This document shows positions 1,676-63,367 of a DNA stretch of 64,000 nt, one piece after another (positions within the stretch are counted from its first letter, which is position 1; each line of letters begins with the position of its first letter). The notes under the pieces were generated by a model, which was given only the letters and a program-made list of their open reading frames with translations, did not search any database and was not told the origin of the DNA. The translations under genes were made by a program, and so were the position numbers. Source of the DNA: Lachnospiraceae bacterium (GTDB lineage Bacteria; Bacillota; Clostridia; Lachnospirales; Lachnospiraceae); contig JAGAQG010000030.1 of NCBI GenBank assembly GCA_017622875.1, positions 211-64,210 of the forward strand, written 5' to 3'.

Positions 1676-1963
1676 TTATACGTCAGCTCCCATACCTTTG
1701 AGGGTGTTGACAAAACGCTTTCTGTTGAAAAACACCGCAAACTTGTATTCATTTCCATTTCGCATTTTTACCGTGACCGTTGGCAAAATAAAAAGCCACC
1801 CTTTCGTCACTTCACTAATATCTTCGTATTTCAATACTAAATGTCTGTATTCCTGGGATATTGTTAATTTACCTGTATGGTAAGTAATTGCTTCTGAATC
1901 TGCAACAATACCACCACCGAGAATTCCGTGTTTCACTAAACTAACAATAAAGTATTTCTTCAT
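1676..1963 (-). CDS. Small hypothetical protein, bacterial PH/GRAM-like
   Basis: 95-aa ORF from ATG 1963 with RBS GGTGGAGAA upstream. The fold assignment is only a pattern impression (beta-rich, ...GKLTISQEYRHLVLKYEDISEVTKG...). Confidence 0.5.
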   Translation of the reverse strand: MKKYFIVSLVKHGILGGGIVADSEAITYHTGKLTISQEYRHLVLKYEDISEVTKGWLFILPTVTVKMRNGNEYKFAVFFNRKRFVNTLKGMGADV

Positions 1964-2156
1964 GCGTATATTCTCCACCAACTTCCGATTTGTTGTTTTA
2001 AATTATACATCTACTAGCACGGAATATCTACCATTTTCAAAAGAATTTCCAGAACCTTTCCTAGAAATAAAATATATTAGGATACTGTATTGCATAAGCT
2101 CCCGCTTTTTCTCTTCAATTCTGCAACTACTGTACCGTAATAAAATACCATTCATT

Positions 2157-4547: not shown

Positions 4548-4585
4548 TTTCTCAGCTCCTTTCATAATGCTAAAAAATAAGAACA

Positions 4586-4626
4586 CACAGAAAATACTTC
4601 ATTTTTTAATGACATATTTTCTCTGT
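4586..4626. repeat. Imperfect inverted repeat at the recombinase-proximal transposon end
   Basis: CACAGAAAATA ... TATTTTCTCTG, lying between the recombinase start (4547) and the point where T4CP homology ends. Confidence 0.4.
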
Positions 4627-5168
4627 ATTCTTAAAATGTAACCCTTAGGGTCAGTCACAACATAACTGGAGTGCATTTGAAGCAAATTAGGCTTCAGCCA
4701 GAAACGGGTCTTACCGGAGCCGGAGCCGCCGATGATTAAGACGTTCTTGTTTCGGGCATTGGCAGGATTCTTCGGACGATTGGACATCATCAATCTCTCC
4801 GTCTTGGTGAGAATGATATTGTCCTCGAACTTCGGAGCCATGAACGGCTCAATATCCTTTGCCGTACCCCAGCGGGCTGAACCATACTCAACATTGTGTC
4901 GGTACTTTTTGGCGTTCTTTCCTTTAAGGTAGACTGCCAATCGCATCATACCGCCGCAGGCAATACCTACAAGCAGGTCTGATGGATGAAAGCTCGGCAA
5001 CGGATTGGAAAGTGCCACGGAGAAGGTACTAAAAAAGCCGAGGAGCTTTGCAGAAAAATCTGCGCCCTCGGCTAATCGCCACGCTTCACCTAAATTGGTT
5101 GCGAATAATCCCACAAGGAAATATGGGACATTCAGGATCAGGAGTCGTTTTATCTTTTTCTTGTCCAT
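4599..5168 (-). pseudogene. Truncated VirD4/TraG-type type IV coupling protein (first ~176 aa only)
   Basis: N-terminal TM helices, Walker A IIGGSGSGKT and ...SSYVVTDPKG, followed by 13 unrelated codons (YILRIQRKYVIKK) and a stop. Intact homologues are about 600 aa. Confidence 0.8.
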
Positions 5169-5644
5169 TACAGATCACGCTCCTGTTTCTTCTCTCTAAT
5201 TTTCTTCGGAATGGAAGCAACAACAGCTTTGAGCTTCTGAAGCTGTTTGAGTACACTTGGACGTTTTTCCTGATTCATGTGCTTCGCCATGTGTTCCTTG
5301 GTAATAGCGTCCAGAACATCAGCGTCTTTTGCTTTCACGAAGACGAGATAGCGGGGTGGATCTACTGATTTATCTTTCCTTACGGCAAAATCCACTCCGT
5401 ATTTTTTCGCCAATCGCTCAAAATCTTTGATTTCGCTCTTGTCGATTTCGGTGTTGGTAGCACCCTGGTTCTGTCCCAGAAGCTCTTTCACCGTCTGTTT
5501 ACCGTGAGGGCGTGTGTCTTTGTGTGCTTTGACCTTTTCCCGGTGTTGCAAATACTTGCGAATACCGGCGACGATACTTCGGCCTGTCAGCTTGGTCGTG
5601 CTGATGGCAAGATTTATCGTCCTGTTTTCAACTTCTTCCTGCAT
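5168..5644 (-). CDS. DUF3801 / PcfB-like conjugation accessory protein
   Basis: 158 aa with RBS AGGAGGTGA. It sits immediately upstream of, and overlaps, the T4CP start, as is typical in Firmicutes ICEs. The family was recalled from sequence pattern only. Confidence 0.65.
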   Translation of the reverse strand: MQEEVENRTINLAISTTKLTGRSIVAGIRKYLQHREKVKAHKDTRPHGKQTVKELLGQNQGATNTEIDKSEIKDFERLAKKYGVDFAVRKDKSVDPPRYLVFVKAKDADVLDAITKEHMAKHMNQEKRPSVLKQLQKLKAVVASIPKKIREKKQERDL

Positions 5645-5677
5645 GAATCATCACCTCCTGCAAGCAGTAGAATGAAA

Positions 5678-5989
5678 TCATCGTGCTGTATCCTTACGGT
5701 CGTAGTAAAGGTTGCCCTTTCCAACAGCAGCATGGCTGATAATCTTAATGTGACCGGCTTTCTGGTTTTCCAGAGCTTTCTTATACCCGAAATCACTCAG
5801 ATACAGGCGTGTTCTTTCGCCCTTCCATCCAACAGGGGAATCATGGGTCAGAACATCAAAAATAATCATGTGCTTTGTGTTTTCGTCAAAACGAGCCAAG
5901 TCCATATAGGTGTGTCCATGGTATTCCTTTGCACCGGCTTTCAGGCGCATTTCTTCCATCAACTCACCAATCGTTTTTCCACCAGCCAT
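5678..5989 (-). CDS. Hypothetical ICE protein (103 aa)
   Basis: ATG 5989 is preceded by AAGGTGG. It overlaps the upstream stop by 11 nt (coupled). No recognisable motif. Confidence 0.5.
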   Translation of the reverse strand: MAGGKTIGELMEEMRLKAGAKEYHGHTYMDLARFDENTKHMIIFDVLTHDSPVGWKGERTRLYLSDFGYKKALENQKAGHIKIISHAAVGKGNLYYDRKDTAR

Positions 5990-5999
5990 AGATGCCACC

Positions 6000-6641
6000 T
6001 TACAGCACATCCCTGTCAGGAGCAGACTTCTTGGGAGTCATATCTGCTTTTTCAGGAGCATCAGGCTTCTTCACTCGGTCATCGGGTACAGGCAGAGCCA
6101 TAAGGCTGCGTCCCATCTTCACGAACATTTCGGGCTGATGGAACATCTTCTCGAACTTCTGCATCTGTTCAGGTGTAAGCGAACCAAAGTCATCCTCTGT
6201 CAGACCGGTAATAAGAAAATCACCAGCGAGAATGTCGTAGATCTGACCTTCATCATCACGCAGACAACGGTTCAATTCACTGCCGTTGAGCTTACCTTCC
6301 TCGTTGCAGATAATCGCAACAGGGTCTTCAAACGGATACACAGCCTGAATGCAGCCACCGACAGCAGCCTGCAAGTCCTCTAACTCACAGCCAATCTGTA
6401 CCTGCTGGGGATACATACCGGGCTTCACCAGAAGAACATCCATAGTAGGTTTCTGTTCCTGCTGGATGTCACGTTCTGCCTGTGTGGTGAACTGAACACC
6501 GGTAAAGTTCTCAGCGTCCAGGACATGCTCCGAGTTGTAATAAGCCTTTTTGACTGCTTCTTCAGCGTCCTCACGAGATTCTGCATCCACCTTCACATTC
6601 TTTTCCAACGTTTCGGTGATTGTAACGTCATACTCTTTCAT
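6000..6641 (-). CDS. DpnD/PcfM-like N-terminal domain fused to a DUF3846 domain
   Basis: MKEYDVTITETLEKNVKVDAESREDAEEAVKKAYYNSEHVLDAENF... followed by LLVKPGMYPQQVQIGCELEDLQAAVGGCIQAVYPF. RBS GGAGG. The family was recalled, not searched. Confidence 0.6.
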   Translation of the reverse strand: MKEYDVTITETLEKNVKVDAESREDAEEAVKKAYYNSEHVLDAENFTGVQFTTQAERDIQQEQKPTMDVLLVKPGMYPQQVQIGCELEDLQAAVGGCIQAVYPFEDPVAIICNEEGKLNGSELNRCLRDDEGQIYDILAGDFLITGLTEDDFGSLTPEQMQKFEKMFHQPEMFVKMGRSLMALPVPDDRVKKPDAPEKADMTPKKSAPDRDVL

Positions 6642-6659
6642 GTTATCAAACCTCCAATC

Positions 6660-7589
6660 TTAAATATTTTCAAAAAGCCAGTTCGTCAGAATATCAAAAG
6701 TTTCTTCTGAACCGCCGCTTTTTTCTTCATGGAGCAGATCATGCCTTGCACCGGAAATCAGATACATCTGAATGTGCTTCATTCCTGCTTTTGACATGGA
6801 CTGCTTTACTCGCTGAACGCCTTTACCGAAGTCTCCGACAGGATCATCTTCGCCAGAAATCAAAAGAACGGGCATCTGCTTGTTCCACTTGCGGTAGGAA
6901 GCAGGCTTGCCCGTTCTTTTCATAGAGTCCAGCAACTGCCAGAACAGACCTGCGGAAATGGTCTTTCGACAGAGAGGATCACCTCGGTATTTGATTCTCT
7001 GTGCGGTGTCAGAGCAGAGCCAGTCGACAGAAGTCATATTGGGGGCGAACTTCTGATTGTAGGTCTCAAAAGACAACTTTTTGATTTTCTGTGTGGAACT
7101 ATCAAAGCCATGTGCCTTGATTTCTCGTTTCACAACAGGCATCAGCATACTTAGGACGGCCCCAGGCTGATGACCAGTTCCCATGATGATTGCTCCATCC
7201 ACCTTATCACGATACAGACTCAGGTAATCACGAAGCAGAAAGGAACCAAGCGAAAATCCTAACATGAAATGCGGGATATTAGGGAACTTGCTTTCCAGTT
7301 CCAAATAGAACAGGTGCATATCGTGAAGTGCGTAGTTCCAACCGCCCTCACCAAAAGATGCACACTGATTATCGCCGGGATTGTGACCATGCCCACGCAG
7401 ATCAAAACCGGCAACGGCAATGCCGTAGGCAGTCAACATATCTGCCAGTTCTTCATAACGTCCGATGTGTTCTGTCATGCCATGCGTTATCTGTACAACC
7501 ATTGTGGGACTGCACATCGGATACCAGATGATGCCGGGAAGGGAAACTCCGTTGGCACCGGTAAATCGAATTTCTTTAGCTTTCATCAT
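6660..7589 (-). CDS. Alpha/beta hydrolase (lysophospholipase / monoacylglycerol-lipase-like), ICE cargo
   Basis: HGMTEHIGRYEELADML..GFDLRGHGHN, nucleophile elbow GFSLGS, C-terminal GARHDL. RBS GGAGAAG precedes ATGATG at 7589. Confidence 0.8.
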   Translation of the reverse strand: MMKAKEIRFTGANGVSLPGIIWYPMCSPTMVVQITHGMTEHIGRYEELADMLTAYGIAVAGFDLRGHGHNPGDNQCASFGEGGWNYALHDMHLFYLELESKFPNIPHFMLGFSLGSFLLRDYLSLYRDKVDGAIIMGTGHQPGAVLSMLMPVVKREIKAHGFDSSTQKIKKLSFETYNQKFAPNMTSVDWLCSDTAQRIKYRGDPLCRKTISAGLFWQLLDSMKRTGKPASYRKWNKQMPVLLISGEDDPVGDFGKGVQRVKQSMSKAGMKHIQMYLISGARHDLLHEEKSGGSEETFDILTNWLFENI

Positions 7590-7634
7590 AACTTCTCCAT
7601 GCCTTGAAATGAAAAAAGCGACCATCCATAAGCC

Positions 7635-8159
7635 TTACGGCTCACAAACAGTCGCACGATTAAGTAGCTGAGCGAACATACAAGTATCATCCAGTGCGCA
7701 GATCAAATCTTCAGGCTCGAAGAAAACATCCTCCTCGGTTCGGATGGTCTTTACATGGCGGCGATACTCTGTAATGCAATCTGCATCCTCACCGTTCTTG
7801 GTCATCGTTCCCGCATACTGAACGATTGCGAAAGTCATGTCCTCCAGGAACCACAGCTCCGTGAAAGTAACTGTGCGCATCCGCTCATTTTCGATGATGC
7901 TTTCAGGATAAGATAGGAGAATCACGCCCCTGTGCTTGAAAAGCACTCTGCCGTTGTAGTCGATACCATCACCGACACGACACACCATACGGAACTCAGG
8001 AATCGTGCCGGCATTTTCGGTGAATGCCTTTGCCAGCCACTTGGGGGAGATGTCCTCGATTTCTTCATCATAGTTTTCATACAGATTCTCCATGACCTCT
8101 GCATCAAACAGGTCAAAGAGTTTCACCAGCGCATTTTCGATTTTCTTGGGTGTAAACAT
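7635..8159 (-). CDS. Acidic hypothetical protein (174 aa)
   Basis: My count is about 34 D+E against about 18 K+R. No recognisable domain. It is coupled within the ICE operon between parB and the hydrolase. Confidence 0.6.
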   Translation of the reverse strand: MFTPKKIENALVKLFDLFDAEVMENLYENYDEEIEDISPKWLAKAFTENAGTIPEFRMVCRVGDGIDYNGRVLFKHRGVILLSYPESIIENERMRTVTFTELWFLEDMTFAIVQYAGTMTKNGEDADCITEYRRHVKTIRTEEDVFFEPEDLICALDDTCMFAQLLNRATVCEP

Positions 8160-8170
8160 TGGGTGTTACC

Positions 8171-9088
8171 TTACCTTTCCATACTTCTCTCACGTTTTTT
8201 CTGCCATTGTTCAAGCAGCTGAATGATTTTATCCTCCATCTGCTTGCTGGTGTAAGATTTCGGGAAGTATTTTCTAAGTGAATCTGTTTTGAAAGTAACT
8301 CGGTCGAGTTCGCCCTTCTTTATTTCATTCATAATTTCACACATCGCATCAAGGGTACATTCACCGGACTGTGCCAGTTTCTTGATACGCTGTGCCTGGG
8401 AGAGAGAAGGGGCAGCCTGAGCATAATCCATAGCTTCCAGAAAGTCTTTCTGTTCTTCTCTTGCGAGATAGGAAAGCTCAACAGCGGGATTAAACTTAAT
8501 CTGTCCGTTATCGACCATATCCAGTAATTCGGGGATAAGCTCAGTCAGTCGGATATAGCGACGAACCGTGTCACCGCTAATACCTTCTTTCTGTCCAACC
8601 TCATCATCACTTCTCGACTTCGCCGCAAGTTGCGGCGAAGTTGTTTTGCCCTGATGCTTGATAGCATCCATCTTCATGCGATAGGCAAAAGCACGTTCAC
8701 TTGGCAGAAGCGTTTCTCTCTGCAAGTTGGAATCGACCATCAAGATGATTGCCGCATCATCATCCAGATCACGGACAATAACCGGCATGGTCTCTTTGCC
8801 CGCAAGCTCAGACGCATGGTGTCGCCTGTGACCGGAGATAATCTCATAGCCGCCATAGGGGTCAGGGCGAACAATAGCAGGTGTCAGAACGCCGTATTCC
8901 TTGACGCTCTCAACGGTTTTCGCCATCTCCTCATCGTCCACAACTCGGAAGGGGTGTCCCTCAAATGGATGGAGTTCAGAAAGAGGAATTTCCTGCACTC
9001 GCTCCTGTTGGGCTTCAGCTCTGCTTTCCTCCGTGGAGAAAAGATCATCGTACCCCTTCAAGTTGATGTTTGCGCCTTTTTTCGGCAT
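8171..9088 (-). CDS. parB: ParB/Spo0J-like partition protein (ParB N-terminal nuclease-like domain)
   Basis: PLSELHPFEGHPFRV...YGVLTPAIVRP...YEIISGHRRHHASELAG. RBS AAAGGAGGTG. Confidence 0.85.
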   Translation of the reverse strand: MPKKGANINLKGYDDLFSTEESRAEAQQERVQEIPLSELHPFEGHPFRVVDDEEMAKTVESVKEYGVLTPAIVRPDPYGGYEIISGHRRHHASELAGKETMPVIVRDLDDDAAIILMVDSNLQRETLLPSERAFAYRMKMDAIKHQGKTTSPQLAAKSRSDDEVGQKEGISGDTVRRYIRLTELIPELLDMVDNGQIKFNPAVELSYLAREEQKDFLEAMDYAQAAPSLSQAQRIKKLAQSGECTLDAMCEIMNEIKKGELDRVTFKTDSLRKYFPKSYTSKQMEDKIIQLLEQWQKKRERSMER

Positions 9089-9875
9089 TGTTTAACACCT
9101 CCTTTGTCAAAACACGATAAGCGTCTGCCACTTTACCTTTCGGATCGTGCTTGAAAATACTGGTTCCCTCGGCACTTATTTCTTCCGCACGGACAGAACG
9201 AGGGATGTCCGTCTTGTAGACCTTTAGCTTGCCACCGTAGCTCTCACGAATCAGGTTACTGATGTCCTTTGCGTAGTTGGTTCTGCTGTCTACCATCGTC
9301 AGAAGAATACCTTCGATTTTCAGCTTCGGATTAATTTGACGACGAACCTTGTTGATGGTCTGCAAAAGCTGTTCCAAGCCCTTTGCGGGAAGGTACTGTG
9401 CCTGCACCGGAATAAGAACGGTATCCGCAGCAGCAAGAGCATTCACGGTCAGCATACCCAGAGAGGGCATACAGTCCAGAAGAATGAAGTCATAGCTCTG
9501 CTTTACCGTATCCAGGTACTGACGGAGAATGGTCTCTCGGCTCATAGCGTTTACCAGAGATACCTCAAGACCGGAAAGCTCGATGTTGGAAGGCATCAGG
9601 TCGATGCCTTCAGGATGATGCAGGATACCTTCGCCCGGTTCAATGGGCTTTTCCATCATAACCTTTGCCATCATGTCAGAAAGCGTTGTGGGCAGTTCAT
9701 CGGGAACAGGATAACCAAGGCTGATTGTCAGCGATGCCTGCGGGTCTGTGTCTACGACCAGAACCTTTTTGCCCTCCATCGCCAAGCCGACACCAAGGTT
9801 TTCCGTGGTAGTTGTCTTGCCGGTACCGCCTTTCTGATTAACCACAGCCATGACGGTTGCTTTCTTTGCCACCAT
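9045..9875 (-). CDS. parA: ParA/Soj family ATPase
   Basis: Deviant Walker A VVNQKGGTGKTTTTENLG. It overlaps parB by 44 nt. Confidence 0.9.
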   Translation of the reverse strand: MVAKKATVMAVVNQKGGTGKTTTTENLGVGLAMEGKKVLVVDTDPQASLTISLGYPVPDELPTTLSDMMAKVMMEKPIEPGEGILHHPEGIDLMPSNIELSGLEVSLVNAMSRETILRQYLDTVKQSYDFILLDCMPSLGMLTVNALAAADTVLIPVQAQYLPAKGLEQLLQTINKVRRQINPKLKIEGILLTMVDSRTNYAKDISNLIRESYGGKLKVYKTDIPRSVRAEEISAEGTSIFKHDPKGKVADAYRVLTKEVLNNAEKRRKHQLEGVR

Positions 9876-9921
9876 TCATCACCTCGACTTTCTTATTGGG
9901 TTTCAAGTTTTATCACTCCTT

Positions 9922-10824
9922 TCAACGAAAAAAGCCCTCTGACATATCGTGACTTACCTTTGCTGTGTAGAAAGGGTCGATAGTAAGAGGGGCATTATAT
10001 ATCGCAGCAAGCAGATACTGCTTGACGTTGCGAACATCAGTTTTGTTTTCTTTGAAGCAGTCAATAACGAAACAGATATGGTCTGATTCCAACTTCATAA
10101 ATCTGCTTTTTACAATTTCAGCTGGCTTATCATCACTGGCGATACGAATCAGCTTGCGTCTGGTACATACTGTTTCAACGATCAAGTCCAAAATGGAATT
10201 AAGCAGATTGTGGTCGTATGGATACCTGGACAGCAGAATATCAAATTCAAGCTGTTCTCTGAAATAATCGTAATATTGTTTCCATTCTCCATTCCCTTCG
10301 GTTCCTTTTCCACAAAAACCGGAAGATAGGAAAGGATCAGTATCACTATAATCAGTATAATTAGTATCAGTATTATTTCCTCGTAGTTTTCCCGACTCCA
10401 CAATCGGGGTTTGTCCGACTCCAGAATCGTGATTTTCCCGACTCTTGAATCGTGATTCCACAATACTATCCACACCACTGACAAAGTTCTTCACATAGAT
10501 CAGGTTGGGTTTTCCAAGTCCCTGTCTTTTGCGTTCAATCAGGCCGCATTTCTTTTCCAATTCGTTATAGAGCTTCGTGGCCTTGTTATCACCACAGTTC
10601 AGCGCAGCCATCGTTTCTTCCAATGTGAATATGATATAGACACGACCGGCAGCATCCATCCAGCCGTTCCGGGCTGACAGATTCATGCGGTCAAGCAATA
10701 TACCATAGAGCAACTTTGCGTCGGTAGACACGTTCCAGAAACGATCATCGGTAAACAGCATCTTCGGTATTTTGTAAAAGGAGAACTGTTCTGCCTGCTG
10801 ACCGTAGAAATAATCAAATTCCAT
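9922..10824 (-). CDS. RepA_N-family replication initiator
   Basis: MEFDYFYGQQAEQFSFYKIPKMLFTDDRFWNVSTDAKLLYGILLDRMNLSARNGW.D..GRVYIIFT is a typical RepA_N N-terminus. RBS GGGAGGTGA. Confidence 0.75.
   Translation of the reverse strand: MEFDYFYGQQAEQFSFYKIPKMLFTDDRFWNVSTDAKLLYGILLDRMNLSARNGWMDAAGRVYIIFTLEETMAALNCGDNKATKLYNELEKKCGLIERKRQGLGKPNLIYVKNFVSGVDSIVESRFKSRENHDSGVGQTPIVESGKLRGNNTDTNYTDYSDTDPFLSSGFCGKGTEGNGEWKQYYDYFREQLEFDILLSRYPYDHNLLNSILDLIVETVCTRRKLIRIASDDKPAEIVKSRFMKLESDHICFVIDCFKENKTDVRNVKQYLLAAIYNAPLTIDPFYTAKVSHDMSEGFFR
10387..10466. repeat. 3.5 direct repeats of 23 bp inside the rep gene (candidate iterons / oriV)
   Basis: TTTTCCCGACTCCACAATCGGGG / TTTGTCCGACTCCAGAATCGTGA / TTTTCCCGACTCTTGAATCGTGA / TTCCACAATAC, starting at 10387, 10410, 10433 and 10456. 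Confidence 0.6.
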
Positions 10825-11056
10825 TTTTGCTCACCTCCCTCGGATGGAAGGGGTCGCTGACCAGAGGAGATTCCCTCAGTGTGCAGCCCTTGATTGCATA
10901 AGGACAACACACATAGTAACAGCTTCGATATTTCCACTTTGGCTGATGGAACTCACATTCTTTGCAGCTTCGTGGAGTCGTTCGCTTGGAGATCCGAGAG
11001 CCAGGAGCTTTTCTCAGTGTCCTTTCCATGGACTGAAATTTTTTGTCCTCACTCAT
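10814..11056 (-). CDS. Cysteine-rich small protein (Cys_rich_KTR-like)
   Basis: MSEDKKFQSMERTL...CKECEFHQPKWKYRSCYYVCCPYAIKGC. Its ATG overlaps the upstream stop (ATGA). Confidence 0.55.
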   Translation of the reverse strand: MSEDKKFQSMERTLRKAPGSRISKRTTPRSCKECEFHQPKWKYRSCYYVCCPYAIKGCTLRESPLVSDPFHPREVSKNGI

Positions 11057-37608: not shown

Positions 37609-37624
37609 GATTTTAATCCACGAA

Positions 37625-37665
37625 TACCAAAAAAGAGCTTGTGAAAACAAGCTCTTTTTTGGTAT
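37625..37665. terminator. Bidirectional terminator (glgA / kinase convergent pair)
   Basis: ATACCAAAAAAGAGCTTGT-GAAA-ACAAGCTCTTTTTTGGTAT perfect palindrome. Confidence 0.8.
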
Positions 37666-37695
37666 TGGAAAACATGAAACAATCTGTTGATAAAT

Positions 37696-38364
37696 TTAAA
37701 ATGAGAGAGGCAGGCTGATTAGGACGGTCGTACCTGCCCCTTCTCTGGAATCTATGGACAGCTTTCCGCCGTGAGATGAAATGATTCGTTTCACGATAGG
37801 TAAGCCAAGTCCCGTACCGTAGGATTTGGTGGTATGAAAAGGTTCAAAGATCTTATCCATCTGTTCCTTGCTCATACCACAGCCATGGTCTGCGACGCAG
37901 ATATGGAGCGTGGTTTCATCCGCAGTAATGCGAAGCTCGATGGGGCTTCCTGCTTCAGAGCTTTCTGCAGCATTCTTTAAAAGATTAATGATTGCCTGGC
38001 GAAGCTTCACTTCGTCAGCAGGAAAATCAAGATCCAGAATGTCACAGGTCAGCGTTAGCGGCGTCCCGGTCTCTAAAAGAAATCCGGCGGTGGATTCTAA
38101 AAGATCTTCTGTAAAATCAAAGAGGTTGATGGTTGTAATATTTAGCACATTTCCTTTTTGAAAGGAAGATAATTCGTCAATCAGTCCCCGAAGATTTTTT
38201 AGATCTTCCATGGTCTGATTCCAGAAGCGAAAGGTCTTTACTTCTGGATGATCGCTTTCAATCAGCTGCAGGGAGCTGTTTATTAGAGTAAGAGGATTTT
38301 TTATTTCATGGAACATTTTAGAAAGTTCAAGAGATTCCTCTGATAGATTGTTTACATTGGACAT
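37696..38364 (-). CDS. Sensor-less orphan histidine kinase (DHp + CA only, 222 aa, no TM)
   Basis: H-box FHEIKNPLTLI, N-box LLKNAAES, G1 DHGCGM, G2 GTGLGL. AGAGGTGA precedes ATG 38364. No response-regulator gene is adjacent. Confidence 0.85.
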   Translation of the reverse strand: MSNVNNLSEESLELSKMFHEIKNPLTLINSSLQLIESDHPEVKTFRFWNQTMEDLKNLRGLIDELSSFQKGNVLNITTINLFDFTEDLLESTAGFLLETGTPLTLTCDILDLDFPADEVKLRQAIINLLKNAAESSEAGSPIELRITADETTLHICVADHGCGMSKEQMDKIFEPFHTTKSYGTGLGLPIVKRIISSHGGKLSIDSREGAGTTVLISLPLSF

Positions 38365-38422
38365 AGGTATCACCTCTAGGGAAAATCGTAACATTGATTT
38401 CTGTAAAATAACAGAAAAATCG

Positions 38423-38439
38423 TTCGACAGATTTCGACA
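38423..38439. promoter_or_regulatory. Two perfect Spo0A (0A) boxes phased 10 bp apart
   Basis: TTCGACAGATTTCGACA: boxes at 38423-29 and 38433-39, reading TGTCGAA toward the kinase gene. They lie 59-75 nt upstream of its ATG. Confidence 0.6.
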
Positions 38440-38528
38440 AAGGTGCGAAAAAGTAAAGTAGGCAAAATTGCTTTACCGTGATAAAATGAAAAAACGTAAA
38501 TGCATTTTGGAAAAGGAGAATGAAAAAA

Positions 38529-38936
38529 ATGAGAGATGCAAATTGTGTATTTTGCAAAATTTTAGATGGAGTGATTCCATCCACAAAATTATACGAAGAT
38601 AATGATTTTGCTATTATTTTAGACATTGGTCCGGCCACATTTGGACATGCGCTGGTAATTCCGAAAAATCATTATGCAAACATTTATGAAATGCCGGAAG
38701 AAATGCTTTCCAAATCCATCTGCCTGGCAAAGGTATGGGGAGAAAAGCTTGTAAAGGCATTCCATGCAGACGGTCTGAACCTTGTACAGAACAATGGGCT
38801 GGCAGCAGGTCAGACGGTGTACCACTATCATTTACATTTAATTCCACGTTACGATGGAGACGGTGTGGGTGATCTCTGGACACCAGGCTCTCTGAGTGAT
38901 GAGCAAAGAAAAGAAATTTTAGAAAAACTTGCATAA
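38529..38936 (+). CDS. HIT family (histidine triad) protein
   Basis: CVFCKI N-terminus and HYHLHLIP triad. The SD GGAG lies 10 nt before ATG 38529 and only 1 nt before the ORF-track ATG 38520. Confidence 0.85.
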   Translation: MRDANCVFCKILDGVIPSTKLYEDNDFAIILDIGPATFGHALVIPKNHYANIYEMPEEMLSKSICLAKVWGEKLVKAFHADGLNLVQNNGLAAGQTVYHYHLHLIPRYDGDGVGDLWTPGSLSDEQRKEILEKLA

Positions 38937-38953
38937 TGTGAGAGATACAAAAG

Positions 38954-39496
38954 ATGAGTCAAAAACTGGATAGATTTCATAAATACCTGAATCTTTATCA
39001 GAAGCTGGTAAAGGTAAATGCAGGCAAGATCGTCGATGACCAGTTGGCAGAAGATGTAGCACAGGAAACATTTATTAAGATGTATGAGCATCTGGACTTT
39101 CTGGAAGACGATACAGTGAAGCAGTGGCTGATTGTTGTATCTGGAAATATTGCAAAAGATTATGCAAAGAAAGGCGGAAGCGTAGAGCTTCATTCCATGG
39201 ACCCTTGTGAATTGGTAGAACAGATAGAAGGTGCCTGCGAATCCGCAGAGGAGTGTTTTGAGAAAGAGGCAAAACAAAAGGCAGCCCGCGAACTTGTACG
39301 GACTGCCTGCAGTCTTCTCTATGAAAAGAATCCAAACTGGTATTATATATTGATTGACTCCTGCATCGTGGGAATGACAAGTTCACAGATTGCCAAGGTG
39401 TTAAATACAACACCCGGAAATGTGGATGTTATGAAATCCAGAGCAAGAGCCTATTTGAAAAAGAAGATTGGTCAGCAATATTATGATTTTTTCTGA
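38954..39496 (+). CDS. ECF-type sigma-70 family RNA polymerase sigma factor
   Basis: Region 2 (AEDVAQETFIKMYEHL) and region 4 (MTSSQIAKVLNTTPGNVDVMKSRARAYLKKK). Confidence 0.8.
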   Translation: MSQKLDRFHKYLNLYQKLVKVNAGKIVDDQLAEDVAQETFIKMYEHLDFLEDDTVKQWLIVVSGNIAKDYAKKGGSVELHSMDPCELVEQIEGACESAEECFEKEAKQKAARELVRTACSLLYEKNPNWYYILIDSCIVGMTSSQIAKVLNTTPGNVDVMKSRARAYLKKKIGQQYYDFF

Positions 39497-40557
39497 GCCG
39501 CCAATTCTTCTAAAAGGCCAGTGATTGTTTCGATGGAATTGCCCATCGGGCTGGTTGCCATGGCATTTACGTATGAATCACGATTTTCCCAGAGTGCGCT
39601 TAAGGCTTCATAGAGGGTATCGCCATTTAACTGTTCTTCTTCAAGAACTGCGGCATAGCCTTGCTTTTCAAAGGAACGGGCATTTAAGATCTGGTCTCCG
39701 CGGCTTGCAGCTGCTGAGAGAGGAATCAGAAGTGCCGGTTTTCGAAGTGCTAAGAACTCACAGATGGAGTTTGCACCTGCACGGGAAATTACAATATCGG
39801 AAAGTGCGAACAGATCCTTCAGTTCGTCGGAAATGTACTCATACTGTACGTAACCGTTCATTGCGGTTAAGGTATGATCTAATTTGCCCTTTCCGCACAG
39901 ATGAATGATTTCAAATTTTTTAAGAAGCTTTGGCAAAATGCTTCGAACAGCTTCGTTTACAACAACAGATCCCAAAGAACCGCCGATAATTAAGAGCACA
40001 GGTTTTTCTCCCGTAAGACCGGTAAACTGTAAGGCTTTTTTTCGGTCGCCGGATAAGAGCTCCTGACGGATTGGCGAGCCGGAAAGAACTGCTTTTTCCT
40101 TAGGAAGATGGTTCATCGTTTCCGGGAAGTTGCAGCATACTTTGGATGCGGCTGGGATAGAGAGTTTGTTGGCAAGCCCCGGTGTCATATCAGATTCGTG
40201 AATGATGACCGGAATGCGGTGCTGTTTGGCAGCGATTACAACCGGTACGGATACAAAACCACCTTTAGAAAATACAACATCAGGCTTCAATTTTTTGAGC
40301 AATTTAGAGGCTTCAGAAAAGCCTTTTAACACTTTAAAAGGATCTGAGAAGTTCTTCAGATCAAAATAACGGCGAAGCTTTCCGGAGGAGATTCCATAGT
40401 ATGGAACACCGCAGGCTTCGATCAGAGTTTTTTCGATTCCATTATAGGAACCGATATAATGAACATCATAGCCAAGCTCGCGAAGCTTTGGCAGCAATGC
40501 AATATTTGGGGTAACGTGGCCGGCTGTACCACCGCCGGTTAATACAATTCGTTTCAT
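39481..40557 (-). CDS. murG: UDP-GlcNAc:lipid I GlcNAc transferase
   Basis: MKRIVLTGGGTAGHVTPNIAL plus a GT28 C-terminal domain. GGAGG precedes ATG 40557. Confidence 0.9.
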   Translation of the reverse strand: MKRIVLTGGGTAGHVTPNIALLPKLRELGYDVHYIGSYNGIEKTLIEACGVPYYGISSGKLRRYFDLKNFSDPFKVLKGFSEASKLLKKLKPDVVFSKGGFVSVPVVIAAKQHRIPVIIHESDMTPGLANKLSIPAASKVCCNFPETMNHLPKEKAVLSGSPIRQELLSGDRKKALQFTGLTGEKPVLLIIGGSLGSVVVNEAVRSILPKLLKKFEIIHLCGKGKLDHTLTAMNGYVQYEYISDELKDLFALSDIVISRAGANSICEFLALRKPALLIPLSAAASRGDQILNARSFEKQGYAAVLEEEQLNGDTLYEALSALWENRDSYVNAMATSPMGNSIETITGLLEELAAQKKS

Positions 40558-40655
40558 AGAAACCTCCATAGGGTTGATTGGGCGATAAAATACCTCTTAA
40601 AATATTATGATACGCAGAAAAGTAAAAGTCAACGAAAACAAAAAAAGGAAATTTT

Positions 40656-41417
40656 ATGAAACAAAAAGAATTTTTTGATTTGGCCGATGAGATGGAAAAG
40701 GAGTGCGGCGATTGGGAGAATTCGGAAGGGATGTCGAAGGAGTCTTATGACGCGCTGATTTCGAAGGTCGAGAGGATGGACCGTGAGGCAGAGGCGGCGA
40801 AAGAGATAAGGACAGAGAAAAAGACCGGGACAAGACGGTTTCGGCTGAGGAAGCGGTATGTCGTGGTGTTGGCGGCTGCACTGGTACTTTTGATGGGTAC
40901 GGGGGTAGTTGGCGACAGGGCATGGATTGCGGAGAGTAATGACCTGGAGAGGGTCAGTGAGGTAACGACGAAGGTCAATAATGAGGAGAAGGATAGTATT
41001 CTGCTGGAAGAGGAGGCGATTTATCAGGAAATTGCGGATAAGTTGGGAATTGCACCGATGAGGCTGGGGTATATTCCGAATGGAATGGAACTGGACAGTT
41101 ATTCAATTATTGAGGATACTGGATGGGCATATGTGAATTATTTGTATGATGAAAAGATTATTTCAATAAAAATGGTAAAAGACAATATTGAAGTGTCCAG
41201 CAATATACAGTGGGATGGTCAAGCTAAAAAAATAGAAAATATAGATAATATTCATGGATATTCTGAAAATATTGAAGCATATTGTGTGGATGAGGAAAAT
41301 AAAAACTATGCTGCAAATATAAAATATGGAAACGGATATTATAATATTTTGGGGTCATTTTCCTCTGATGAAGAATTTTTAGAAATTTTAAATGGAATTT
41401 ATTTCAAAAACCTGTAA
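40656..41417 (+). CDS. Putative anti-sigma factor-like membrane protein (DUF4367-like)
   Basis: Acidic cytoplasmic N-terminus, single TM (YVVVLAAALVLLMGTGVV) and an extracellular domain. The family was recalled from pattern only. Confidence 0.5.
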   Translation: MKQKEFFDLADEMEKECGDWENSEGMSKESYDALISKVERMDREAEAAKEIRTEKKTGTRRFRLRKRYVVVLAAALVLLMGTGVVGDRAWIAESNDLERVSEVTTKVNNEEKDSILLEEEAIYQEIADKLGIAPMRLGYIPNGMELDSYSIIEDTGWAYVNYLYDEKIISIKMVKDNIEVSSNIQWDGQAKKIENIDNIHGYSENIEAYCVDEENKNYAANIKYGNGYYNILGSFSSDEEFLEILNGIYFKNL

Positions 41418-41487
41418 GGTTTTTGCTGCTGAATCGTATTTATAGTGTAAGGCTTACAAATACGAGAAAGAAAGGAGAGAGAAACCA

Positions 41488-41970
41488 ATGAAGAAACTGT
41501 TGAGTGTAACCTTAAGTGTTTTCTTACTTTTGGGATGTTTTCATCTGAATGTATCTGCTGCAGAAGCAGTATATCCAAAAGTAAGTCACGCTTATACAAC
41601 GACAGAAGACTTTGCAAGCGATGAATGGTCAGTGGCTCAGCGAGGGGCCTATTTGGGTAGTGGAACCTCAACCATTGCCCGTGCAGACAGTACTCATATT
41701 CATATCTCAGGTGACACAACTGCAATGCAGACCTGCGATAAAGTGAGATTAACATTGTATGTGGAACAGTCGGAGTCTTATGCAACGGGATATTCTACTT
41801 ATAAGACTTATTCCTATTCCGCAGAGAATGTATATCAGCTTGTAAAAGGAATTTCAAACATTTCCGTGGAACGTGGCTACTATTACAGGGTGAAAGGCGT
41901 CCATTCTGTAACTGAAGGCAGTGTCACGGAAACCACAGACAGCGTAACCGATCCAATCGATTATCGCTAA
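41488..41970 (+). CDS. Secreted hypothetical protein
   Basis: Signal peptide MKKLLSVTLSVFLLLGCFHLNVSAAEA. RBS AAAGGAGAG. Confidence 0.6.
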   Translation: MKKLLSVTLSVFLLLGCFHLNVSAAEAVYPKVSHAYTTTEDFASDEWSVAQRGAYLGSGTSTIARADSTHIHISGDTTAMQTCDKVRLTLYVEQSESYATGYSTYKTYSYSAENVYQLVKGISNISVERGYYYRVKGVHSVTEGSVTETTDSVTDPIDYR

Positions 41971-42545: not shown

Positions 42546-42583
42546 CAATGTCGAAAAAATGTGATAGGCGCAATTTCTGTTGG

Positions 42584-53927: not shown

Positions 53928-53956
53928 GGCTGTCACGAAGGTGACAGTCTTTTTTT
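53928..53956 (+). terminator. Rho-independent terminator after divIC
   Basis: GGCTGTCAC-GAAG-GTGACAGTC followed by TTTTTTT. Confidence 0.8.
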
Positions 53957-54021
53957 GTCTAAAACTCTAGGGAACATGAAATCTTATTTTGACAAAAAAA
54001 TAATCTGCTCACAGATATAGT
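53956..54021 (+). promoter_or_regulatory. spoIIE promoter with 21-bp spacer and 0A-box-like elements
   Basis: TTGACA (53989-94)-N21-TATAGT (54016-21). TGTCTAA at 53956-62 has one mismatch to TGTCGAA. The -35 region is embedded in TTTGACA (one mismatch to TTCGACA). Confidence 0.55.
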
Positions 54022-54056: not shown

Positions 54057-55496
54057 ATGATTGGAATGTTTTGGGCAGAAAAATATGCCATGGTAACGGG
54101 ACTGACACTGGTGGTACGAAAGCTTTTTAAACCAAAGGGTACAAAGGATATGTGGGTAAGTGCATTGACGGCAGGGACGGCACTGATTTCCATGAATCTT
54201 GGGGCGGGACTTCTGTATCCTTATACAACAGAACAATATTTGTTTGGTGTGGCAGAAGGAATCTTTGCGGGCAGTACGATTCTGATGCTGTGGATGCTTG
54301 GAAAAAAGATGTTTGTAAAGAAGCCTGTGGCGGCAGAGGAGAATTTTTCTCCTGGAGAAGAACGAATCGAGCATTATACAAAAGCATTTACGGATCTTGC
54401 AAGAACCTTTTTAAGCGTGCCCTCGGGAGGTACCTATGCGGTGGTGGGCATGGATGATTACCAGAAAGTTCACGCCGCGTGGAATGCAAGAATGGACGAA
54501 CAGAGGGTGGCGGTGGCAACTCAGCTTACAGAAATATCCGAGATCATGGAAGGAGCCATACGAAGGGCATACGACACAAAGGAAGATACTTCTCTGGAGA
54601 GGCAGCTAAAAAGGCTTTTGCATAAAAAGGGCATTTTGCTGAAAAAGGCATTTGTATATGACAATGAAGAGCAGAGAAAGGAGGTTTATCTTACCATTCG
54701 CACACGAAAGAAGAGCTGTATTTCCAATAAGGAGGCGGCGGAATGTTTATCAGAGGTGCTGGGGATGGCTATGATGCCATCCCGTGAAGCCAGAGCTTTT
54801 GTAAGAAATGAATATATGAATACCTGCTTTGTGGAGCGCACCAATTTTGAGGTGATTTATGCAGTGGAGCGATGTGTGGGAGATTATCAGCAGATTTCCG
54901 GTGACAGCTTTTCCTTTTTGCATAAAGAAGAAGGACAGTTTTTGGCAAGCCTGTCAGATGGTATGGGTACCGGGTTAAATGCATATCAGGAAAGTGAAAA
55001 GGTGGTAGATTTGCTGGAACAGTTTTTAGAAGCTGGATTTTCCAAGGAGACGGCAGTGAAGATGATCAATTCAGCACTGGTGCTGCGTTCTGACGGTAAG
55101 ACCTTTTCCACCATTGATATCAGCTCCATTGACCTTTACAGTGGTGTCTGTGAATTTTTAAAGATTGGTGCAGCTACCTCTTTTATCCGAAGGGGGAACT
55201 GGGTAGAGACCATCACCTCTACCAGCCTGCCTGCAGGTATTTTTCAGCAGACTGATCTTGAAAAGACCTGCAGAAAGCTTTATGACGGGGATATGGTGGT
55301 GATGGTGACAGACGGGGTACTGGATGTACTGCCTGTGGAGCATCAGGAAAAGCTGATGAAAGACATTATTTTGGAGCATCCGACGAATAATCCCAAGGAA
55401 TTGGCGGATTATATACTAAGCAGAGTCAGACAATATAAGAACGGGCGGTTCTGTGATGACATGACGGTTTTAGTGGTGGGAATCTGGAAGCGATAG
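54057..55496 (+). CDS. spoIIE: Stage II sporulation protein E (PP2C phosphatase), short form with about 3 TM helices
   Basis: ISGDSFSF...LSDGMGTGLNA...MVTDGVLD...DDMTVLVVG PP2C motifs. AGGAGGG precedes the ATG. Synteny with tilS-hpt-ftsH. Confidence 0.8.
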   Translation: MIGMFWAEKYAMVTGLTLVVRKLFKPKGTKDMWVSALTAGTALISMNLGAGLLYPYTTEQYLFGVAEGIFAGSTILMLWMLGKKMFVKKPVAAEENFSPGEERIEHYTKAFTDLARTFLSVPSGGTYAVVGMDDYQKVHAAWNARMDEQRVAVATQLTEISEIMEGAIRRAYDTKEDTSLERQLKRLLHKKGILLKKAFVYDNEEQRKEVYLTIRTRKKSCISNKEAAECLSEVLGMAMMPSREARAFVRNEYMNTCFVERTNFEVIYAVERCVGDYQQISGDSFSFLHKEEGQFLASLSDGMGTGLNAYQESEKVVDLLEQFLEAGFSKETAVKMINSALVLRSDGKTFSTIDISSIDLYSGVCEFLKIGAATSFIRRGNWVETITSTSLPAGIFQQTDLEKTCRKLYDGDMVVMVTDGVLDVLPVEHQEKLMKDIILEHPTNNPKELADYILSRVRQYKNGRFCDDMTVLVVGIWKR

Positions 55497-62089: not shown

Positions 62090-63367
62090 CTAACTTGCAG
62101 AAATATTAGGTAATATACCTATAATGGCATTTGCAGACTGGACTTTATTCTTGTAGTCAAGATGGGTATAGATGTTTAGGGTAGTTGAAATATTGCTATG
62201 TCCTAACCATTCTTGGATGGCTTTCATATCTACACCATTCTCATAAAGGAGAGTAGCACAGCTGTGTCTCAAATCATGAAAGCGAATGTGTTTCAATTTG
62301 TGTTTATCGCAAACATATCGAAAATGTTGAGATACATAACCTGGCTTAATTAGTTGTCCAGTGGCAGTAACAAAAATATAGTCATTAAATTCGTTGCAAT
62401 ATGATTTGCCACAAGCAATGCGATTATTTTCTTGCCTTTCAAGTAATTGATAAAGTAACTGCTCAAATTGTGGTACCAAAGGTAATGAGCGGGTACTTGC
62501 CTTCGTTTTTGTGCGGTTCTTTTTTATTAATTTGTATTTTCCATCAACTGTGGCTTGAGTAACTACGTGCCTGATGGTAATCGTCTTCCTTTCGAAGTCA
62601 ATGCTGCTCCATTTTAATCCAATAACCTCGCTTCTTCTTAATCCATAAAAACTTGCAAAATATATTGCAGCTTCCAATGGATCACCTTTGAAAATCTGGA
62701 ATAAACTGCTCAGTTCATTTTGGTTGTAAACAGATGACTGAAAGGTGTCTAATTTGGGCTTTGTAAGTCTATCGGCTGGATTGCTTTTTATAAGTCCAAT
62801 CTTAAAAGCGTCTTGAAGCGCTTTCCTGATATTTGCATGTCGGTGATTAACTGTATTAGCTGAAATACCATAAGTTTCTGCTTCATAGTCGTAATAGGAT
62901 TGAATTAAAAAAGGCTGTTCTTCTATTTCTGCAAGAGAATACCCTTTATCGGAGAAGAATGGATAAATTCTGTTTTCTATCGCATATTGATAGCCGGAAT
63001 AAGTGTCTTCTCCAAGATTTTTTCGTGAAGATTGTAACCAATAGAGCATATAGTCGCAAAATCGGATTTGCTCTTTGGGAAGTAATAAAAGTGATGAATC
63101 AACACTTGGTAATATTTTAACGTTTTGGTTAGGTAGGCGAACCGAAGATGATTTGTTGTAACTTGCCTCCCTTCTGTATAGCGACTCCATATTGGGAATC
63201 TGAAAATCTTTTCTCGCTGTTTGTAACATACGTTCAGCTTTTCGGGCGTTTCCTTTTACAGTAAGACCTGTGGAAATAGATTTCGTTTTTCTTTTTCCAT
63301 CACAGTCTTTGTAACTTAAAATCATTTGATAAATACCGTTTTGCACACGCAGATGACCTGCAACCAT
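62090..63367 (-). CDS. Tyrosine-type site-specific integrase
   Basis: SAM-like N-terminal domain. C-terminal ...RRSEVIGLKW..., HDLRHSCATLL and LGHSNISTTLNIYTH (R-H-R-Y signature). RBS AAGGAGG. Confidence 0.9.
   Translation of the reverse strand: MVAGHLRVQNGIYQMILSYKDCDGKRKTKSISTGLTVKGNARKAERMLQTARKDFQIPNMESLYRREASYNKSSSVRLPNQNVKILPSVDSSLLLLPKEQIRFCDYMLYWLQSSRKNLGEDTYSGYQYAIENRIYPFFSDKGYSLAEIEEQPFLIQSYYDYEAETYGISANTVNHRHANIRKALQDAFKIGLIKSNPADRLTKPKLDTFQSSVYNQNELSSLFQIFKGDPLEAAIYFASFYGLRRSEVIGLKWSSIDFERKTITIRHVVTQATVDGKYKLIKKNRTKTKASTRSLPLVPQFEQLLYQLLERQENNRIACGKSYCNEFNDYIFVTATGQLIKPGYVSQHFRYVCDKHKLKHIRFHDLRHSCATLLYENGVDMKAIQEWLGHSNISTTLNIYTHLDYKNKVQSANAIIGILPNISAS

Follow-up and report, generated by a model that had tools for sequence, protein, structure and literature searches.

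The kinase gene considered here occupies positions 37696..38364 on the minus strand of a 64-kb stretch of Lachnospiraceae DNA (the window, to which all coordinates refer), where its open reading frame, Pfam matches and homologues describe a monocistronic gene for an orphan histidine kinase of 222 amino acids plus stop. Its ATG (38364-38362) is preceded, at 5 nt, by the ribosome-binding site GAGGTGA (38370..38376, minus strand), of which GAGGT is invariant in an alignment of 7 orthologous loci, and an identical 222-aa protein is present in the database. Downstream, between the kinase gene and the convergent glgA, lies a hairpin with A-run and T-run flanks (37622..37667), which can be read from its sequence as a putative bidirectional terminator; Rfam hits in this region were sub-threshold and of the hairpin type only. 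Upstream, the kinase gene shares its spacer with two divergent plus-strand genes, one for a HIT-family protein (38520-38936) and one for an ECF-type sigma-70 factor (38954-39496), for which a promoter scan returned a promoter-like site, TAGGCA-17-TAAAAT with TG (38459..38487, plus strand). An Rfam search of the spacer gave no riboswitch and no small RNA, and on the kinase strand the consensus promoter scan gave nothing resembling a sigma-70 site, the kinase promoter being recovered solely by comparison with relatives. The alignment and a promoter model place a putative weak −35, TGTTAT (CTGTTA if shifted by 1 nt), at 38408..38413 (minus strand), in the slot of TTGTCA or TTGCCA in relatives, and a putative extended −10, TGt TACGAT, at 38385..38393 (minus strand), in columns that are invariant across the 7-locus alignment and where relatives have TGcTAGGAT or TGnTATATT. 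Transcription would then start near 38378, and a −35 this weak in the window would fit an activator-dependent promoter.

The protein consists of a DHp and a catalytic ATP-binding (CA) domain only, as a preliminary description of this DNA had read it, and both Pfam and an alignment to KinB bear this out. The HATPase_c domain spans residues 117-220 (37705..38016, minus strand) with a Pfam score of 101 bits, and the DHp/HisKA domain spans residues 13-70 (38155..38328, minus strand), with H-box FHEIKNPL, His19 codon at 38308-38310 and specificity residues TLSSQL; its HisKA score of 24.4 bits is slightly under the 26.9 cut-off, and the KinB alignment spans the DHp. The N box, the G1 box (DxGCG), the F box and the G2 box (GTGLGL) are all preserved, and the catalytic residues are invariant in the family alignment. 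The best solved-structure match is the sporulation kinase KinB (3D36, E 1.3e-24), over residues 16-221, a match only about as good as those to ThkA and ZraS and thus not diagnostic; the best partial NCBIfam matches are AtoS and KinD, and we took none of these five matches to assign a pathway. The cores of sporulation kinases have likewise been described as not diagnostic (PMC6136694).

The same description had noted that the kinase has no transmembrane segment, sensor domain or partner regulator, and here the evidence agrees throughout. A search by 19-residue hydropathy gave no membrane segment (maximum 0.93), just 12 residues precede the DHp, with no sensor or input domain among them, and nearly all of the 120 closest homologs are 220-230 aa long, with one of 260 aa. 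No receiver domain was found within ±10 kb of the kinase in relatives, nor in any of ~90 family loci, and the sensor-less, orphan state holds across the kinase family. Unlike a classical two-component sensor kinase, the protein has neither an N-terminal input domain nor a cognate regulator in its operon.

Upstream of this gene, the minus strand at 38423-38439 reads TGTCGAAatcTGTCGAA toward the kinase (plus strand, TTCGACAgatTTCGACA) and holds two heptads that each match the 0A core TGTCGAA exactly (7/7), with starts 10 bp apart and a 3-bp gap between them. The distal box (38433..38439, minus strand), which is kept in orthologous promoters, lies at about −61 to −55, and the proximal box (38423..38429, minus strand) at about −51 to −45, relative to the putative transcription start. 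The coordinates confirm what had been claimed for the pair, namely two exact boxes at 10-bp spacing, 59-75 nt 5' of the kinase ATG at 38364. It had also been argued that single heptads should occur about eight times by chance and a perfect phased pair should not, and the counts are in keeping with this: 7 single exact boxes were seen in the 64-kb window against 8.0 expected, and the exact pair occurs once, with ~5e-4 expected per window at the 10-bp offset. A chance origin of the exact pair is excluded. Pairs with up to 2 mismatches are expected 0.48 times per window, and one such near-tandem (4405-4421, 2 mismatches) lies within a recombinase gene and was taken as chance.

The TGTCGAA core is the Spo0A box, which the DNA-binding domain of Clostridioides difficile Spo0A binds (PMC3485338), and footprinted Spo0A sites comprise two boxes separated by 3 bp (PMC2731898). 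Sequence and geometry thus support the pair as a Spo0A dimer site, at which Spo0A would be expected to bind. In a scan of public genomes, perfect triple boxes were found immediately 5' of spo0A (5 cases, all full-length), adjoining ComK genes (15) and membrane histidine kinases (5), and with one SipL neighbour in a Lachnospiraceae MAG, a set of neighbours that supports the motif as a Spo0A operator; comK is a known Spo0A target (PMC3297582).

It is very improbable that the repeat instead serves another heptad-repeat regulator, such as a CtsR-like repressor or an OmpR/WalR-type protein. CtsR, whose targets are clp and heat-shock genes, has the consensus (A/G)GTCAAA-NAN-(A/G)GTCAAA, and its operator has the identical 7-3-7 direct-repeat layout; some MAGs listed as Mollicutes or Tenericutes likewise contain perfect triple TGTCGAA arrays, which would suit such a regulator. 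The heptads, however, match the 0A core at all positions and differ from CtsR at positions 1 and 5, their spacing is unlike that of WalR (TGTWAH-N5) or PhoP boxes, and the same arrays stand at the promoters of spo0A and comK, known targets of Spo0A.

As to the regulator itself, spo0A was not found in the 64-kb window by signature peptide, nor in the fetched family loci by tblastn, in which the matches were unrelated receiver domains beside non-family kinases. The window does contain sporulation genes (those for a CotS-family protein, YabP, YabQ and SpoIIE), and from these, together with published predictions that assign a Spo0A to each of the seven Lachnospiraceae in which an orphan kinase is listed (PMC6136694, Table S5), we infer a spo0A gene elsewhere in this genome. 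Boxes at the spoIIE promoter, in the window and in 9 relatives, have 1 mismatch only, which is consistent with Spo0A control and not decisive.

Beyond the window, we sampled kinase loci from 80 Lachnospiraceae species, at 35-81% identity. At least one exact forward box lies upstream of the kinase in 48/80 loci, an exact 10-bp tandem in 20/80, and a tandem with no more than 1 mismatch in 31/80, with up to four boxes in 10-bp phase at some loci. Upstream DNA of the family loci holds 71 boxes in 17.4 kb, and the remaining 785 kb of the same loci holds 20 boxes and no exact tandem. The position relative to the promoter is also kept: at 35 loci exactly 9 nt separate the proximal box from a sigma-A-type −35 downstream of it, and in one clade the gap is 29 nt, that is, 9 plus two helical turns. 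Across the 7 orthologous loci (66-81% protein identity), boxes, −10 and ribosome-binding site are the sole blocks without variation, the remainder of the spacer having diverged, and T1 and G5 of the box are conserved family-wide. These comparisons support the pair as a conserved and functional cis-element that belongs with the kinase promoter and, judged by sequence conservation, make the module a feature of a Lachnospiraceae kinase family rather than a peculiarity of the window genome. An upstream scan found several family clades without boxes, including that of the spore-former Robinsoniella, so the link between box and kinase is not obligatory.

The preliminary description had pointed out that the spacer also precedes the HIT and ECF-sigma genes, which is correct, and the spacing singles out the kinase as the primary target of the boxes. 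In the window, the −35 of the HIT operon begins 19 nt past the distal box; in the 7-locus alignment, the HIT promoter blocks are themselves conserved and their distance from the boxes varies between 15 and 23 nt, whereas that to the kinase −35 is fixed at 9 nt. The boxes therefore belong to the kinase promoter, with the kinase as primary target in this clade, and co-regulation of the HIT-sigma genes by the same boxes is possible. We assign a negligible probability to the reverse arrangement, in which the boxes serve mainly the HIT-ECF sigma operon, with the kinase only a bystander. One spacer does serve both, the HIT gene being the divergent neighbour at 71 of the 80 loci of the family and a sigma homolog being present somewhere in 71, and in short-spacer clades the distal box, read as its reverse complement (TCGACA), could act as a HIT −35. 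Against this stand, besides the constant distance to the kinase −35, the orientation of the boxes, which always point toward the kinase, and a family locus (L003) at which they abut the HIT ribosome-binding site and leave no space for a HIT promoter between.

For the regulator that such a kinase would serve, the specificity residues were compared with a direct-class signature, defined as N-[VIL]-S-[AST]-Q-[VLI] or S/A-x-G-[LA]-Q-L. The window residues, TLSSQL, are similar to those of clostridial kinases verified as direct partners of Spo0A: 4/6 are identical to those of CD1579 (NLSSQV) and CD2492 (NVSSQL), with T rather than N at position 1, and 5/6 to TLSSQA, from the sole orphan kinase of a sporulating segmented filamentous bacterium, with T at position 1; CA_C0903, a third verified direct partner, has NISAQL. 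Most verified direct kinases have N at position 1, where the window kinase has T, and TLSSQL is without the G-F pair of Spo0F-directed kinases (T-x-G-F-Q-L). The statement that Clostridia lack the phosphorelay, from which the preliminary description had set out, proves too broad, since many Clostridia are predicted to have one, although for the listed Lachnospiraceae direct phosphorylation is predicted (PMC6136694). Two species listed as sporulating in a table of the same work, L. phytofermentans and L. symbiosum (PMC6136694), have no orphan kinase with this signature, and the kinase family is thus not required for sporulation throughout Lachnospiraceae.

It is distinctly unlikely that the gene belongs to the Spo0A regulon and its kinase acts elsewhere, on another orphan regulator or in a later sporulation or stationary-phase pathway, in which case no loop would exist. 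Partner assignment draws on six residues only, some family members carry TLGFQL or TLSFQL signatures, nearer other kinase classes, and the conserved divergent HIT-ECF sigma operon hints at a different functional link; against these points, receiver genes are absent from the ~90 family loci, and the TLSSQL signature groups with direct Spo0A partners and does not have the G-F/G-Y pair of most other listed orphan kinases. That the kinase shares a module with the ECF sigma factor and the conserved divergent HIT protein, whose family hydrolyses P-N bonds, is speculative.

We posit, with belief slightly outweighing doubt, that Spo0A~P controls a minimal kinase that feeds back directly on Spo0A. The direct repeat would be the operator for a head-to-tail dimer of Spo0A~P, some 45 to 61 bp ahead of the transcription start. 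The promoter there would be of the sigma-A type, its −35 weak and its −10 extended, and it would drive a monocistronic gene whose product, a cytoplasmic histidine kinase, comprises DHp and ATPase domains only. Since a kinase without an input domain should have an output that depends mainly on the amount made, Spo0A~P would set the kinase level, most probably by activating the promoter, and the kinase would most probably exchange phosphate directly with Spo0A, so that the start of sporulation would be under direct transcriptional feedback. A feedback loop of this kind had been proposed beforehand and is now partly supported, by the conserved operator at the kinase promoter, the geometry of a Spo0A dimer site and the sensor-less orphan kinase; binding by Spo0A and the sign of the regulation are inferred, as is Spo0A as the partner, from the specificity residues.

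A loop of negative sign, in which Spo0A~P would induce a Spo0A~P phosphatase, or repress a kinase that feeds Spo0A, and so limit or pulse the response rather than latch it, we consider fairly unlikely. The H-E-x-x-N motif has a phosphatase role in HisKA kinases, and the H-box here has its phosphatase-competent E and N residues. The closest signatures (N-x-S-S-Q-x) are moreover those of C. difficile sporulation-inhibiting kinases, three orphan histidine kinases of that species being reported as inhibitors of sporulation. Repression would also fit the largest clade of the family, in which the core promoter is near-consensus (TTGCCA-17-TGnTATATT), and so should do without an activator, and in which degenerate boxes in reverse orientation overlie the −35 and the spacer, and it has a precedent in phi29 A2b, where Spo0A sites just upstream of the −35 can repress (PMC2731898). 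Conservation of all ATP-binding motifs, on the other hand, suggests that autokinase activity is maintained, and the poor −35 in the window argues for activation.

Among known systems, the tandem 0A operators of B. subtilis abrB, spoIIG and spo0A, phage phi29/Nf, and C. difficile spo0A, spoIIE and further genes share with the window pair the TGTCGAA core, the head-to-tail arrangement, the 3-bp gap and a place in the promoter region (PMC3485338, PMC2731898), whereas most characterised targets are degenerate (PMC3485338) and both window boxes are perfect, with a histidine kinase gene as target. Standing at a constant 9 nt ahead of a sigma-A promoter with normal spacing, the window site is also unlike spoIIG/spoIIE and abrB. 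The spoIIG and spoIIE promoters are of the long-spacer type, and at abrB the 0A boxes lie downstream of the transcription start. On the side of the protein, the clostridial direct kinases (CA_C0323, CA_C0903, CA_C3319; CD1492, CD2492, CD1579; CPR0195; among others) are likewise orphans with a HisKA + HATPase_c core (PMC11210211) and have similar specificity residues (x-L/V/I-S-S/A-Q-L/V), but they are far longer, with membrane and/or PAS input where the window kinase has neither, and belong to Clostridium and Clostridioides rather than Lachnospiraceae. KinB of Geobacillus stearothermophilus (PDB 3D36) is alike over DHp and CA, with H-box HEIRNPLT, and unlike the window kinase has a membrane sensor region and Spo0F as target (TxGFQL class). 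In B. subtilis, Spo0A~P feeds back to kinA and kinB indirectly, via AbrB and sigma-H and a four-step phosphorelay, and commitment is timed by the level of the kinase (PMC3269414); the likeness is that the master regulator raises its own kinase, and the wiring in the window would be direct at both steps. Separately, the perfect 0A arrays seen at other kinase genes point toward recurrent direct control of kinases by Spo0A in Firmicutes.

A literature search gave no account of 0A boxes in Lachnospiraceae or at the genes of orphan kinases, an absence that is no proof, and a 2024 review treats 0A boxes generally, with none at kinase genes (PMC11210211). The arrangement is a real, conserved and apparently undescribed variant of a known circuit. 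Tentatively, and with less confidence than we place in the loop itself, it may represent a minimal latch in much of the gut Lachnospiraceae, in which Spo0A~P switches on a constitutive, input-less kinase that phosphorylates Spo0A, with direct control by Spo0A of its own kinase genes recurring, and so far overlooked, across Firmicutes; such a latch, if true, would replace both the indirect AbrB/sigma-H loop and the phosphorelay of Bacillus.

Activation of Spo0A is the least understood step of sporulation beyond Bacillus and a few Clostridium species, and for the abundant spore-forming gut Lachnospiraceae a conserved, sensor-less orphan kinase behind perfect boxes is a concrete candidate for an activating kinase. 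The circuit logic that it suggests is one of expression level as the signal, plus direct autoregulation, and, if true, it would mean that feedback from master regulator to kinase, indirect in Bacillus, can be hard-wired directly. In practical terms, Spo0A activity in gut commensals could be followed with the kinase promoter as a compact reporter, and the kinase itself may offer a handle on the sporulation and transmission of gut Lachnospiraceae.

The paired 0A boxes (TGTCGAA, a 7-bp Spo0A site) at 38423–38439 (forward strand TTCGACAgatTTCGACA, minus strand TGTCGAAatcTGTCGAA) are an exact match to the tandem arrangement, forming a direct repeat of two exact 7-bp boxes that are separated by a gap of 3 bp and face the kinase ATG at 38364. 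As the preliminary description had cautioned, single boxes are uninformative here, with 7 exact copies observed in the window versus 8.0 expected by shuffling; the exact pair occurs once, with ~5e-4 exact pairs at that offset expected per window. Permitting up to two mismatches added one further site in the window, inside a recombinase gene (0.48 expected). Single exact boxes, at chance frequency, were also seen at 42549–42555, 88 nt upstream of a PNP_UDP_1 (MTA/SAH nucleosidase-like) gene, and at 40732–40738, within a DUF4367 gene. By sequence and geometry, the paired site is an ordinary Spo0A operator, with binding predicted: the TGTCGAA core is a defined Spo0A box bound by the C. difficile Spo0A DNA-binding domain, which needs G2, C4, and G5 (PMC3485338), and Spo0A sites mapped by footprint consist of two boxes with 3-bp separation (PMC2731898).

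The gene facing these boxes (37696–38364, minus strand) starts at an ATG after GAGGTGA and encodes a 222-aa protein, for which an identical database record exists. The protein is a HisKA kinase core of the ordinary type, with HATPase_c at residues 117–220 (Pfam, 101 bits), HisKA at residues 13–70 (Pfam, 24.4 bits, slightly below the cut-off), and, as its closest solved structure, the catalytic core of the Geobacillus sporulation kinase KinB (3D36, E 1.3e-24, residues 16–221). Its earlier designation as a sensor-less orphan holds, since only 12 residues precede the phospho-acceptor (DHp) helix, a hydrophobicity search for a membrane span found no sufficiently hydrophobic stretch, and no response regulator was found near the kinase, either within 10 kb in two well-annotated relatives or in any locus of the family (homologs gathered by profile search from 80 Lachnospiraceae species, 35–81% identity). 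Among orthologs, neither the phospho-acceptor histidine nor the N, G1, F, and G2 boxes vary. Because almost all of the 120 nearest homologs measure 220–230 aa (one has 260 aa) and the loci are without a response regulator, the sensor-less form is a stable layout and not a truncated one. In most family members, the DHp is preceded by an extra N-terminal helix of 25–30 residues (MLTYDEQEKMERL...), which is lost in the window's clade (window 38329–38364).

The window kinase gene is monocistronic: glgA converges on it with a hairpin terminator between the two, and a HIT gene, with an ECF-type sigma gene behind it, diverges from it. HIT is the divergent neighbor in 71/80 species, and an ECF-type sigma homolog is present in 71 loci (L046–L125), synteny so deep that it hints at a functional tie of the kinase to the HIT-sigma operon. 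Beyond an inverted murG, an anti-sigma-like DUF4367 protein and a DUF6147 protein are encoded in the window (38520–41970) and in two close relatives. Judged by eye from translations, the left end of the window (1–11000) is mobile-element-like, with a large serine-recombinase-like ORF (2157–4586) and ParA/ParB-like ORFs (8171–9875), and an integrase-like ORF (62090–63367) lies near the right end.

Kinase orthologs with 66–81% identity and the same gene order occur in uncultured 'Lachnoclostridium' and Lachnospiraceae MAGs. When eight upstream regions were aligned, the spacer proved to have diverged almost wholly save for four conserved blocks: both boxes, a hexamer resembling a −35, a TG-extended −10, and the ribosome-binding site. 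The proximal box kept a constant distance to the kinase −35 across the aligned orthologs, whereas the distal box lay a variable 15 to 23 nt from the blocks conserved in the divergent HIT promoter; the boxes are thus a component of the kinase promoter. In one species, the HIT ribosome-binding site directly adjoins the boxes.

The family spans, among other genera, Hominiventricola, Faecalimonas, Blautia, Bariatricus, Robinsoniella, and Lactonifactor. Upstream of the kinase, 48/80 species have one or more exact forward boxes, 20/80 an exact 10-bp tandem, and 31/80 a tandem with no more than one mismatch, counts that share ancestry and are not independent events, although between clades the flanking spacer is unalignable and the kinases are only 40–45% identical. 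In several species, the 10-bp phasing extends over three or four boxes. The 17.4 kb of DNA upstream of the kinases holds 71 boxes, versus 20 boxes and zero exact tandems in the other 785 kb of family loci (both strands), a roughly 160-fold enrichment. The register is also fixed: in 35 loci, the proximal box sits exactly 9 nt 5' of TTGCCA or TTGTCA, followed after a 17–18-nt spacer by TGnTATATT or TGcTAGGAT, and in a Blautia-like clade one exact box lies at 29 nt upstream, i.e., two helical turns farther. Boxes are absent in some clades (Robinsoniella, Bariatricus, Hominisplanchenecus). Box-less clades (L056, L057, L060, L062, L075, L079, L082, L097, L098) share a different conserved element, TGTCAATAAT(A/T)..., adjoining the kinase −35, which would be a site that has diverged or one used by some other regulator.

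As an unbiased control for the motif, a genome collection was scanned for three perfect phased boxes, yielding at least 120 matches with ~0.3 expected by chance; proportions refer to a sample, the matches listed. A sizeable minority of those listed were, by eye from spacer and GC content, GC-rich 10-bp microsatellites in non-Firmicutes. Among the matches listed, full-length spo0A genes encoding canonical HEIGVPAHIKGYQYLREAI and SRVERAIRHAIEVAW helices lay directly downstream in five AT-rich Firmicutes, ComK was the divergent gene in 15 (Pfam 163 bits), the sporulation gene sipL was downstream in one Lachnospiraceae MAG, and membrane HisKA kinases of 407–419 aa, with specificity residues AVGYDM, stood behind five (L143, L154, L217, L252, L256). 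Two more listed arrays (L186, L261) front kinase-like proteins with HATPase_c intact and the acceptor histidine changed to Q or R. Both sets are additional instances of 0A boxes at kinase-type genes beyond the family. Triple arrays at spo0A, ComK, sipL, and kinases argue that, in gut Firmicutes, phased perfect boxes flag known genes of the Spo0A circuit, with kinase genes recurrent among them. Competence expression in B. subtilis is reportedly tied to Spo0A~P (PMC3297582). The ComK arrays (L145, L147, L165, L174, L182, L199, L214, L216, L224, L227, L231, L239, L248, L260, L262) come from uncultured Bacilli, 'Mollicutes', and 'Tenericutes' MAGs, and place the boxes just 5' of ComK and the middle box 22 nt ahead of a TG-extended −10, a geometry like that of spoIIG. 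In L213, a Lachnospiraceae MAG, and in L241, the gene behind three to four perfect boxes encodes a conserved 150-aa protein that matches no Pfam family (MEGQELPEDRDRLAEY...).

Sporulation genes within the window encode a CotS-family protein (above the NCBIfam cut-off), YabP, YabQ, and SpoIIE; spo0A was sought in the 64-kb window and is absent from it, and we infer that Spo0A is encoded in the window's genome. The window SpoIIE (54057–55496) is only 479 aa long, lacks the greater part of the N-terminal membrane region, and matches TIGR02865 only over model positions 421–763; since this short form is kept full-length in 9 related species (L126–L134, 67–89% identity), it is a clade trait rather than a pseudogene. 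Its promoter (53956–54021) combines TTGACA, a 21-nt spacer, and TATAGT with a conserved TGTC(A/T)AA 27 nt upstream, and resembles the spoIIE and spoIIG promoters of B. subtilis, which are long-spacer and Spo0A-dependent.

A predicted Spo0A is present in all seven orphan-kinase-bearing Lachnospiraceae of Table S5 in PMC6136694, and the six DHp specificity positions defined there (H+7, +8, +11, +12, +14, +15) bear on the kinase partner. The window kinase reads TLSSQL and the family mostly T-[LY]-S-S-Q-[LW], as compared with T-x-G-F-Q-L in Spo0F-feeding kinases, NVSAQV (CA_C0323), NISAQL (CA_C0903), NLSSQV (CD1579), NVSSQL (CD2492), and NISTQI (Clo1313_1942) in direct Spo0A partners, and TLSSQA in the sole orphan kinase of a sporulating segmented filamentous bacterium. 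This comparison with tabulated kinases is suggestive of a place for TLSSQL in the direct Spo0A class, except for the T at position one, kinase cores being non-diagnostic (PMC6136694). The Table S5 orphan kinases of Blautia hansenii (TLSFQL) and Dorea formicigenerans (TLSTQM) are probably family members. As a further limit on the partner assignment, L. phytofermentans and L. symbiosum, both sporulating per PMC6136694, show no orphan kinase that carries the TLSSQL signature.

With a transcription start placed near 38378, the boxes would lie at approximately −45 to −51 and −55 to −61. The window kinase promoter has a poor −35 (TGTTAT or CTGTTA) and a TG-extended TACGAT as −10, and is thus of the type requiring an upstream activator. 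Here we infer Spo0A binding, the sign of regulation, and the kinase partner, and activation of the input-less kinase gene by Spo0A~P, via predicted binding, appears most likely: a head-to-tail Spo0A~P dimer on the boxes would boost transcription, kinase activity would track kinase concentration, and a direct positive loop would result if the kinase phosphorylates Spo0A. By contrast, the kinA/kinB loop of B. subtilis is indirect, via AbrB and sigma-H (PMC3269414). The main rival is a negative loop, because the largest clade (TYSSQW, L052–L091) has a near-consensus core promoter, repression is possible by Spo0A sitting just 5' of a −35 (PMC2731898), the H-E-x-x-N motif of the kinase would allow phosphatase activity, and C. 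difficile proteins of the most similar signature are reported to inhibit sporulation. Degenerate reverse boxes (TTTGCCA-nnn-TTTGACA), at roughly −50 to −34 relative to the ATG, also overlap the −35 and spacer in that same largest clade and could repress at high Spo0A~P.

A 2024 review of clostridial orphan kinases (PMC11210211) treats 0A boxes only in general terms and leaves Lachnospiraceae unmentioned, and our literature search for 0A boxes in combination with either orphan kinases or Lachnospiraceae found nothing relevant. New here are a family of input-less orphan kinases spread across the Lachnospiraceae and the perfect Spo0A boxes conserved in fixed register at their promoters, with direct wiring both ways, from Spo0A to kinase and back, implied. 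The kinase offers a testable candidate for how Spo0A is activated in abundant spore-formers of the gut.
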